Of a stretch of 64,000 nt of DNA, positions 9,483-11,460 are shown piece by piece. Each line of letters opens with the position of its first letter. The stretch's first letter is position 1. A model generated the notes under the pieces. It worked only from the letters and a program-made list of their open reading frames with translations. It was not told the origin of the DNA and did no database searches. Source of the stretch: Capsulimonadaceae bacterium (lineage in GTDB: Bacteria > Armatimonadota > Armatimonadia > Armatimonadales > Capsulimonadaceae); assembly GCA_965277095.1 (NCBI GenBank), contig OZ255718.1, forward strand, positions 3,295,594-3,359,593, in the 5' to 3' direction. Position numbers and translations under genes: made by a program.

Positions 9483-9569
9483 CGCTGGGTGAAAGGCTTG
9501 CTTCAGACGAGGGCATTTAGTAGATGTGCTTCTCATAATGATATATTGACAGATTGGGAACCTCAACAA

Positions 9570-10694
9570 ATGAATAACGATTTGTCCGCACAGCTATATA
9601 ATGCTGCCGACGCAGGCGATTTAGAGAAAATAGAAAAGTTGATGGCCTTGGGGGGCGATGCTAATTGGCGTGATGCTTTCGGAACGACAGCCCTTATGTG
9701 TGCAGCATACGAAGGCAATATAAAAGTTTGCAAAGCATTACTGAAGAATGGAGCAGACCCCAATTCTACACATTTAAACGGTTCCACAGCTCTATTCTAT
9801 GCTCTGGAATCCGAATCAGAAGACTGGCAAACATCTGATTTGTGTGAGTTGCTTCTTCAATATGGTGCAAGCGTTAACATTGCTGATATCAACGGATTGA
9901 CACCTTTAATGAAATCTGTAATGTTAGAAAAGAAAAGAGCTTTTCAATCACTAGTGTATGATCATATGGCAGATGTGAATGCAAAAGACCAAAAGGGACG
10001 TACTGCATTGATGAAAGCAGCATGTAAAGGCAATATTGACTCTTGCCAATTGCTTCTTAGTCGGCACGCAGACGTAAATGCCATAGATGACAATGGAGGA
10101 ACTGCCTTAATGGAGGCTGCTTGTAGAGAAGATATGAAGTTATGCAAACTTTTTATTCATTCAGGAGCCGACGTAAATGTACAAGCATACCAAGCACACA
10201 AAGGTTTAACCGCGCTTATAATAGCGAGTTTAACTAACAATGGCGGTATTTGTCGCCTTCTTATATCGAATGGAGCAAGAGTTGATTTGGTTAATTCCTT
10301 TGGTGAGACAGCAGAACAAATTGCGAAAAGAATGGGTAATAAGGAAGCTTTATCCGCCTTGCGATCTGTACCGCAGATTTCTAAAATTGCATTAGAGGAA
10401 AGTAATAACCCCACGAAACGTAGTGGCACAATATCTAAGCTATTTATTGCATTTTCATTACTTTATGGGTTTGCCTGTTTAAATATGCTCATTAGTGGTG
10501 GTTCATACATATTATTCGAGATTGTAGCTATTGCGATTGGGTTTATAATATGGCGAGGAGGTGGGCAAAAAAGAAGTTTTTGGAGCGTTTGGCTGATTTC
10601 AACTTTTGTACCTCTCCTCTTGCTGGTTTTTGGACCTACAGGAATGATGTTGTCTTTCGTTGCCCGTTTTATCATAATCCGCTTGATCAGGTGA
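9570..10694 (+). CDS. ankyrin-repeat protein with C-terminal multi-TM anchor (374 aa)
   Basis: repeated G.TALM.AA..G......LL..GADVN units; hydrophobic tail; track ORF 9471.. starts in attC, ATG 9570 used. Confidence 0.8.
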   Translation: MNNDLSAQLYNAADAGDLEKIEKLMALGGDANWRDAFGTTALMCAAYEGNIKVCKALLKNGADPNSTHLNGSTALFYALESESEDWQTSDLCELLLQYGASVNIADINGLTPLMKSVMLEKKRAFQSLVYDHMADVNAKDQKGRTALMKAACKGNIDSCQLLLSRHADVNAIDDNGGTALMEAACREDMKLCKLFIHSGADVNVQAYQAHKGLTALIIASLTNNGGICRLLISNGARVDLVNSFGETAEQIAKRMGNKEALSALRSVPQISKIALEESNNPTKRSGTISKLFIAFSLLYGFACLNMLISGGSYILFEIVAIAIGFIIWRGGGQKRSFWSVWLISTFVPLLLLVFGPTGMMLSFVARFIIIRLIR

Positions 10695-10698
10695 GAAA

Positions 10699-11379
10699 AT
10701 GCAAATTTTGCAAGAAACAGATGGTTTTTTAGAACAGGTTACAAACTTCAATTTTGCGGGTGAAGTCAAAAAGTTCTTGCCCGCTACGTTAGATCGCTTT
10801 TTGGAAGCCTGCTTTTTTGCTCACCTAGCCGTTAATGTTGACGCAAAATCATCCTCTTTCGACGAAGTGAATTGGTGTACTAGCGCGCATTTAGCTGCTA
10901 TGGTTAGTATTAGAGACGCTGCGCGTACTGACTTCAAGAAAATAGGAAAGGAAAGCAAATTTGAAGAGTCGGTTATCGCAAAAGAGTTTTTCCTTTCGAC
11001 TGATTCGGCGAATCGCGCGGATTGTGATCCGCTTGGCATTAACAGAGCCTTTCGAAATCTACGTAACCTACGGGTGCATTATTCAATTTCTTTAGTAGTT
11101 TTAGAACCGCATGTTTTATTAGCGGATATTGGGGCTGATAAACAAGGTATATTCAGATGGTTTCTCAGGCCGCTTGATCCAGTGGAACAGAAATGGCTGA
11201 CTGCGCACAAAAATAAGCAAGGGAATAAAGAACCTTTGTTGAAAGCGACTGAAATCACTCGGTTCAATGAGTGGTTGCTTCATAAAACGCTTGGTGCTAC
11301 TCTTTATCAACATCTTCTAGTTTTAGCAGGGGCTATCAACTCAACAGCTTTGCATCTAGAAAATCAAAAGGCAGAATAA
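10699..11379 (+). CDS. hypothetical protein with HEPN-like RNxxxH motif (226 aa)
   Basis: 4 nt after ankyrin gene in the same cassette; NRAFRNLRNLRVHYS contains R-N-x3-H; otherwise unrecognised. Confidence 0.55.
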   Translation: MQILQETDGFLEQVTNFNFAGEVKKFLPATLDRFLEACFFAHLAVNVDAKSSSFDEVNWCTSAHLAAMVSIRDAARTDFKKIGKESKFEESVIAKEFFLSTDSANRADCDPLGINRAFRNLRNLRVHYSISLVVLEPHVLLADIGADKQGIFRWFLRPLDPVEQKWLTAHKNKQGNKEPLLKATEITRFNEWLLHKTLGATLYQHLLVLAGAINSTALHLENQKAE

Positions 11380-11460
11380 AATTTGCCCTGCATCAGTCCT
11401 GTAATAGGGCAAGAAGGAGAGCGAAAAAATTCGCTTTGACTTTAATGCTGATTGTCAGCG

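Follow-up and report, generated by a model that had tools for sequence, protein, structure and literature searches.

The 64-kb stretch of contig OZ255718.1 from a Capsulimonadaceae bacterium that is analyzed here, referred to at its full length as the window, is a single integron cassette array, and one of its cassettes carries two genes on the + strand: gene 1 codes for an ankyrin-repeat membrane protein and gene 2 for a member of an unnamed helical protein family with a conserved arginine-histidine motif. An earlier reading of the letters alone, which we call the sequence-only reading, had singled out this cassette as a candidate defense or toxin-antitoxin (TA)-like module. The reading that we favor, and to which we give about an even chance, is that gene 2 represents a new family of HEPN-like conditional ribonucleases (RNases) that is here co-expressed with a lineage-specific ankyrin membrane partner.

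The two-gene cassette and its genes

The window contains 121 attC sites of one type, all in the same orientation and spaced mostly by 260-800 bp, with the consensus YCTAACAATGCGCTGCACCYGACGCC ... GTCGCAGGTGAGCTATGGCGTTAGRC. Integron cassettes are recognized by attC sites with R''/R' cores (RYYYAAC...GTTRRRY), by imperfect bottom-strand hairpins and by a same-orientation array, and all of these features are present here: (i) the attC of the preceding cassette (9384..9482, + strand, as are all features below) has the cores R'' GCCCAAC (9384-9390) and R' GTTAGGC (9476-9482) and a bottom-strand hairpin of -35.1 kcal/mol (z=-5.0), (ii) the cassette's own attC (11461..11559) has the cores R'' GCCCAAC (11461-11467) and R' GTTAGGT (11553-11559) and a bottom-strand hairpin of -24.8 kcal/mol (z=-2.4), and (iii) both hairpins are of the expected imperfect type. 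From R' core to R' core the two-gene cassette (9477-11553) spans 2077 bp, the largest spacing among the ~120 cassettes of the window, and the GC content of its body, 0.407, is below that of every other cassette (120 in all; mean 0.492, sd 0.043), in agreement with the sequence-only reading, which had described it as the largest cassette (~2 kb) and as AT-richer than its neighbors. The span given there, 9483-11460, does hold a real two-gene cassette, but the cassette's own attC also belongs to it and its 3' end is G 11553. Between gene 2 and this attC lies a 3' untranslated stretch (11380..11460) with two short hairpins (TTGCCCT...AGGGCAA and AGCGAA...TTCGCT), in which a terminator-like stem scored on the minus strand only. 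No integrase was found within the window, the array extends past both window ends, and the attC core is almost exclusive to genomes of the Armatimonadota (Armatimonadales, Capsulimonadaceae). Taken together, the size of the array, its running off both ends and the restriction of its attC point to a very large sedentary integron in the Armatimonadota.

Gene 1 (9570..10694), read as an open reading frame (ORF) of 374 aa from an internal ATG at 9570, codes for an ankyrin-repeat membrane protein. Its start codon is ambiguous: the frame is also open from the ATG at 9471, which lies with an AGGTGAG inside the preceding attC and would give a protein of 407 aa. The Pfam models Ank_2 (E=3.4e-53, 178.6 bits, cut-off 27.3; 6-7 repeat stretches) and Ank (E=4e-39, 130.9 bits, cut-off 21.1) both score above their gathering thresholds, and 7-8 repeats can be counted by eye over about residues 5-285. 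Kyte-Doolittle hydropathy with a 19-residue window is at least 1.6 over residues 290-370, and the C-terminal membrane region (residues 290-374; 10437..10691) has, by eye, about four membrane helices and a basic loop, RGGGQKR. The description of gene 1 in the sequence-only reading (374 aa, about 7 ankyrin repeats and a C-terminus with several transmembrane segments) thus holds. By the positive-inside rule, the RGGGQKR loop and an R-rich tail suggest that the ankyrin domain is cytoplasmic. Among 5.8 billion proteins no full-length relative was found except the gene 1 protein itself; the homologues, with 40-80% of the query covered, are generic ankyrin proteins. The PADLOC models PDC-M72A (E=6.7e-39) and MzaA (E=2.5e-07) match in stretches within the ankyrin region, the NCBIfam MzaA model gives 111 bits against a cut-off of 800, and the NCBIfam models of Legionella Ank effectors match, in the stretches listed, inside the ankyrin-repeat region and far under their family cut-offs where such are defined. 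Membership of gene 1 in the PDC-M72 or Mza systems was rejected given that the ankyrin repeats alone match.

Small ankyrin proteins are also encoded by other cassettes, two in the window (23989-24465 and 62851-63237) and one in another Capsulimonadaceae genome (L022, 7359-7829). These three lack membrane segments and lack a gene 2-like partner, and ankyrin proteins therefore seem to be recurrent cargo of these Armatimonadota integrons.

Gene 2 follows gene 1 on the same strand after a gap of 4 nt, as had been read from the sequence: gene 1 ends at 10694 and gene 2 starts with the ATG at 10699. At the junction (10689..10701) a Shine-Dalgarno-like AGGTGAG overlaps the TGA stop codon of gene 1 (10692-10694). 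This spacing and the position of the AGGTGAG suggest that the two genes form one operon with translational coupling. We found no attC remnant between gene 1 and gene 2, and together with the tight coupling this led us to reject the idea that two cassettes have been fused into one.

The gene 2 family and its possible relation to HEPN proteins

Gene 2 (10699..11379) codes for a protein of 226 aa by ORF reading that matches nothing among Pfam, NCBIfam, PADLOC and PHROGs models or PDB sequences. A word-indexed search returned five relatives, and an exhaustive HMM search of 1.84 billion representatives extended the family to 64 clusters at 50% identity. Nearly all members stand alone as proteins of about 200-240 aa, or are fragments of such proteins; gene 2 belongs to a previously unnamed and rare family of helical proteins of about 215 residues; a scan of GTDB species genomes with family patterns found nothing. 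Two alignments were built, one of 33 members (A2; most 26-43% identical to gene 2, one 75%) and one of 40 members (A4), the members of both being overall 23-43% identical to gene 2 except for the close relative at 75%. In A2, W59, A67, E96, D110, P111, R122 and H127 are invariant and D32, R33, E36, F40, A63, D78, R125 and W154 are nearly so, and the 40-member alignment gives the same outcome.

The most conserved feature of the family is the R122...H127 motif. It lies in NRAFRNLRNLRVHYS, residues 115-129 of gene 2, as the canonical Rx4H R122-N-L-R-V-H127 (codons 11062..11079), and it was the R-N-x3-H in this stretch that had suggested a HEPN-like protein in the sequence-only reading. The motif is indeed there, with R122 and H127 invariant over 33-40 members and N123 conserved in most of them. 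HEPN catalytic motifs have the form Rx4-6H with a polar N, D or H after the R (Anantharaman et al. 2013, PMC3710099), and the gene 2 family conforms to this form in both respects. The invariance of the two residues and their place at the end of a predicted helix make this a candidate catalytic motif, and gene 2 a candidate HEPN-like RNase.

The predicted structures are consistent with this assignment. An AlphaFold2 model of the gene 2 protein with the family alignment as input has a pLDDT of 95.0 and a pTM of 0.91, and a model of P0145, a compact member of the family with shorter inserts, has a pLDDT of 95.7. The gene 2 model opens with short N-terminal helices; two long helices, 28-45 and 51-81, come next, and then an insert of 30 residues that contains two short helices. 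After it come a helix spanning residues 114-128 with R122...H127 at its C-terminal end, a β-hairpin insert, a helix at 183-193 and a long helix at 198-225. In both models the third long helix ends in the motif, with the β-hairpin insert behind it. In HEPN proteins, helix 3 ends with the Rx4-6H motif, inserts that separate helix 2 from helix 3 are a characteristic feature and, in Csx1, a β-hairpin comes straight after the motif (PMC3710099). Together with the polar residue after R, the modeled layout of gene 2 therefore fits four points made for HEPN proteins, as compared by the order of secondary-structure elements.

Searches for remote similarity weigh against the assignment in several ways. 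HEPN profiles of Pfam, NCBIfam and PADLOC match none of the 33 members, the sole exception being one member against a CARF_HEPN model at the chance level of E=0.011, and a profile of the family finds nothing among PDB sequences. The Foldseek comparison that had been proposed as a check gave no match at E<=0.001 to the PDB or BFVD for either model; the best PDB matches of the gene 2 model are generic long helical bundles with TM <0.3, and no HEPN protein is among its best 50. In addition, the invariant acidic residues D32, E36, D78, E96 and D110 exceed what a HEPN site typically needs, and no relatives of gene 2 were found by tblastn in plasmid and phage collections or by a scan of IMG/VR. An hhalign comparison of the family with E. 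coli RnlA also gave nothing, a weak test with a single RnlA sequence. For use in a comparison profile, HEPN cassettes were sought in the window and in the fetched loci, and none was found. The Foldseek negative is probably weak evidence, as local structural alignments would be interrupted by the long inserts of about 30 and 70 residues. For P0145, four HEPN toxins (8yuf_B, 4nqf_A, 4nqf_B and 8xeh_B) are among the best 50 PDB matches with non-significant E values of 1.4-2.7, and among these 50 no other match exceeds a target-normalized TM of 0.35 (theirs is 0.38-0.42) or has an rmsd as low as theirs (7.0-8.8 Å). The earlier proposal of a HEPN-like protein is supported by the invariant motif and its position at the end of helix 3 in the models, and no recognized HEPN profile or structure was matched at a significant level. 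On balance, we think it somewhat more probable than not that the gene 2 family is a divergent branch of the HEPN superfamily.

Alternatively, gene 2 may be neither an RNase nor a HEPN protein but adopt a new helical fold and have a different function on mobile elements, e.g. in anti-defense, DNA processing or element maintenance, in which case R...H would serve in binding or structure. The absence of significant sequence or structure matches to HEPN proteins and the many invariant acidic residues fit such a scenario, as does the setting of one subfamily: in six loci (L013, L014, L016, L017, L044 and L045) the relative lies in a shared module that resembles an integrative and conjugative element (ICE) and is followed by DUF932, with a gene for a SNF2-like helicase preceding it in L013 (5627-9523) and L014 (764-4636) and with Rad52 and DUF6094 genes nearby in L013. 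Such ICE-like regions often bear establishment or anti-restriction genes. DUF932 (yfjQ) also adjoins rnlAB in the E. coli CP4-57 prophage. Against the alternative stand the invariant R-N-x3-H, placed precisely where the third long helix ends, the HEPN toxins as best target-normalized structural matches of P0145 and the other contexts of the family, which are defense islands rather than leading regions; we therefore regard it as unlikely.

Genomic settings, the pair and a proposed mode of action

Members of the gene 2 family are always on mobile or island DNA, often amid defense genes. Relatives that are 33% identical to gene 2 immediately follow a gene for an integron integrase (TIGR02249, E=5e-72; L002-L007), one adjoins a DDE_5 transposase (L009) and one lies between hisB and rnhB after a gene for a 198-aa membrane protein (L001). 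In Actinomycetota (L010-L012), the relative is preceded by a gene for an unknown 142-aa protein and lies in an integrative island that also carries integrases and an HTH_17 excisionase-like gene, and its neighbors include a HerA-like ATPase (PADLOC mad8), RadC, M78/DUF4411 and a type I restriction-modification (R-M) system. Of side interest, these three loci share one island backbone with sample-dependent downstream cargo, namely M78/DUF4411 with type I R-M, Multi_ubiq/ThiF/BubE, or CBASS with HORMA, Cap8 and SMODS, and the island looks like a swap-prone defense hotspot. Elsewhere the relative lies 4 nt after a gene for an unknown 347-aa protein near AbiGi and a GHKL ATPase (L047) or 17 nt after a DUF4238 gene (L015); in one case, cloning of a DUF4238-domain protein gave E. 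coli protection from T7 (bioRxiv 10.1101/2021.01.21.427644). In these settings, members of the family are often the downstream gene of a tight pair with a variable upstream member, and no partner is conserved over the contexts examined. No nucleotidyltransferase (NTase) adjoins gene 2 or any relative examined, and the arrangement is thus not that of a HEPN-MNT pair.

That integron cassettes carry phage-defense systems, as the sequence-only reading had pointed out, is documented (e.g. bioRxiv 10.1101/2024.07.02.601719, PMC12614218). The cassette corresponds to no named system, and the sequence-only reading had not recognized one either: no PADLOC-DB 2.0 system is matched with all its components, gene 2 and the 32 other members scanned give no significant match and gene 1 matches in its ankyrin regions only. 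The idea of a defense module draws on association, i.e. the presence of relatives in defense islands and mobile elements, and lacks a named PADLOC counterpart; from the sequences, we consider a two-gene defense system plausible.

The pairing of gene 1 with gene 2 recurs once. In L008, from a sequencing-run assembly, gene 2 is 74% identical and lies in the same two-gene cassette, with the same gene 1 membrane tail, the 4-nt gap, the Shine-Dalgarno-like sequence that overlaps the stop of gene 1 and an attC all kept. dS between the window and L008 is about 0.3, with dN/dS of 0.49 for gene 2 and 0.24 for the gene 1 tail; gene 1 tail and gene 2 are both under constraint, and the pair has had little time to separate. 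L008 sits in a different integron, the attC of which is related but diverged (GCCTAATAATGCATTGCAGCCGACAC...GTCGTGGGTGAAGTATGCCATTGGGG; L008 990-1105 versus window 11455-11565). The 3' untranslated stretch is ~88% identical between the two and better conserved than the attC that follows, and therefore the attC appears to have evolved faster than the neighboring non-coding DNA, as if adapted to a different host array.

Counter-evidence to our favored reading is also that this only conserved pair is just dS about 0.3 away, that none of 21 other loci examined (about 8 kinds of setting) has an ankyrin neighbor beside the gene 2 relative, and that no convincing internal promoter was found in the cassette by consensus scan (3 promoter-like sites versus 4.2 expected by chance). 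The sensor and effector pairing put forward in the sequence-only reading is accordingly weakly supported, with the ankyrin partner recurring in L008 and no ankyrin neighbor in the other 21 loci. It may be that genes 1 and 2 are independent cargo sharing one cassette, with gene 1 as one of several ankyrin-repeat proteins that cassettes of these integrons encode, and that gene 2, whatever it does, acts alone. This would account for the unrelated neighbors of its relatives (a 142-aa protein, a SNF2-like helicase, DUF4238, the unknown 347-aa protein, a DDE transposase and a 198-aa membrane protein), for the ankyrin cassettes without such a partner in the window and in L022 and for the fact that the sole conserved pair is found in a close relative. 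It is less easily reconciled with the 4-nt spacing, the overlap of the Shine-Dalgarno-like sequence with the stop codon and the lack of an attC remnant, which point to one operon, with the unusually low GC content that both genes share, and with the retention of the arrangement in L008 in a different integron with a diverged attC. We judge independent cargo to be somewhat on the unlikely side.

A further scenario, included in the sequence-only reading, is a TA addiction module that stabilizes the integron array, with gene 2 as the toxin and the ankyrin protein as the antitoxin. The array does hold toxin families typical of TA cassettes (BrnT twice, ParE-like, PIN and NYN), the two genes are tightly coupled and ankyrin repeats are generally known to bind proteins. 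However, to our knowledge, a 374-aa membrane protein such as that encoded by gene 1 is unlike any known antitoxin; neither an MNT nucleotidyltransferase nor a DNA-binding antitoxin is present, there is no sign of an internal promoter, and a family found in at least 8 further kinds of setting, with no partner common to them, cannot be constitutively toxic. With no antitoxin-like gene and no partner conserved in the family, we consider a TA module very improbable.

Returning to our favored reading of a HEPN-like conditional RNase co-expressed with an ankyrin membrane partner, we infer HEPN membership, RNase activity, a role in defense and an interaction of the two proteins, and the following sequence of events can be envisaged. 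By analogy with HEPN enzymes, the gene 2 protein would dimerize and R122, N123 and H127 would make a metal-independent RNase site. Since members of the family occur in mobile contexts without a conserved partner, the protein is probably not a constitutive toxin but self-restrained, as are single-gene Abi HEPN proteins. Gene 2 would be co-transcribed and probably translationally coupled with gene 1, the product of which would hold its ankyrin domain on the cytoplasmic side of the inner membrane by means of about four helices. There, the ankyrin protein would be a binding partner that senses the trigger or would tether or restrain the RNase, the weakest step of the proposal, and RNA cleavage, once switched on, would halt growth or abort phage infection.

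An extended version of this model, which we regard as a decidedly long shot, is by analogy that a membrane-anchored ankyrin sensor controls a HEPN-like RNase in trans, i.e. that the logic of RNase L is realized by two proteins on one cassette and provides abortive-infection immunity, and that the gene 2 family is a portable effector with interchangeable upstream partners (the ankyrin membrane protein, DUF4238, the SNF2-like helicase and others). If our favored reading is confirmed, the gene 2 family would be a new family of the HEPN RNase superfamily that current annotation and defense-finding tools miss entirely, the cassette would be an example of a two-gene defense candidate carried by a very large sedentary integron in the poorly studied phylum Armatimonadota, and the pair would offer a testable case of a bacterial ankyrin-repeat membrane protein that acts with an RNase. 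Given the rarity of the family (64 clusters in 1.8 billion representatives), its wider impact is limited unless the pattern of variable partners is general.

The surrounding array and known systems

Several features of the array lie outside the question of what the two genes do. Just 5' of the R' core, the attC consensus contains the Shine-Dalgarno-like AGGTGAG followed by ATG (AGGTGAGCTATGGCGTTAGGC; 9460-9482 in the window and across the array). An NTG occurs at this position in 73 attC sites, and 11 of the 73 open an ORF of at least 80 aa exactly there (9471, 15189, 15662, 16149, 17310, 23989, 39316, 42126, 54931, 55738 and 60144); where the translation was viewed (9471 and 23989), it begins MALGR. 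Judged from these sequences, the attC may provide the cassette that follows with a ribosome-binding site and a start codon.

Some 25-30 cassettes measure just 261-275 bp and fall into mutual repeat families (D16-D20; examples at 8269-8544, 12847-13386, 38468-38742, 43141-43682 and 49732-50805). Being too short for much beyond an attC, they may be non-coding or code for small peptides and have multiplied. A Pfam scan of 74 other cassette ORFs identified the BrnT toxin (2), ParE-like, DUF5615/PIN_10, NYN, TPR, DUF6793 (2) and ribosomal L12 C-terminal-like (2) proteins and at least 3 insertion sequence (IS) transposase ORFs, with most proteins unmatched. The three next-largest spacings (starting at 45496, 50805 and 61513) each contain an ORF of 273-331 aa, and the IS transposase ORFs are probably located there.

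The comparison with known systems places the cassette near several of them. Among these are the stand-alone HEPN Abi proteins (AbiV, AbiD/AbiF, AbiJ and AbiU2), which are likewise helical proteins of about 200 aa with a motif of the R-[NDH]-x3-H type, encoded by single genes on mobile elements or in defense islands without an obligatory antitoxin; the gene 2 family differs in that it matches none of their Pfam profiles and in that gene 2 has large inserts after helix 2 and after the motif. HepT of the HepT/MntA (HEPN-MNT) systems (PDB 8yuf, 8xeh and 4nqf) shares a similar local motif, RNxxxH followed by an aromatic residue, and provides the best target-normalized structural neighbors of P0145 (TM 0.38-0.42, at the non-significant E=1.4-2.7), whereas no MNT partner is found beside any gene 2 family member examined and the gene 2 protein exceeds HepT by about 80 residues and has a C-terminal subdomain. 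There is also a precedent for HEPN proteins borne as integron cassettes in the PDB 3jrt family, for which a function as a stress or dormancy RNase has been proposed (Anantharaman et al. 2013). That family is gammaproteobacterial, no sequence relationship between it and gene 2 was detected, and 3jrt is absent from the structural matches listed for gene 2 and P0145. On the side of gene 1, PDC-M72A and MzaA, which PADLOC offers as ankyrin candidates, resemble the protein in their ankyrin regions, and the remaining domains and partner genes of those systems are absent here. Finally, RNase L and Ire1 combine an ankyrin or sensor domain with a KEN-type HEPN RNase, a likeness that we see as a functional analogy for gating and not as homology: in RNase L the domains are fused, together with a pseudokinase, in one eukaryotic protein, whereas in the cassette described here the corresponding parts would be played by two separate bacterial proteins.

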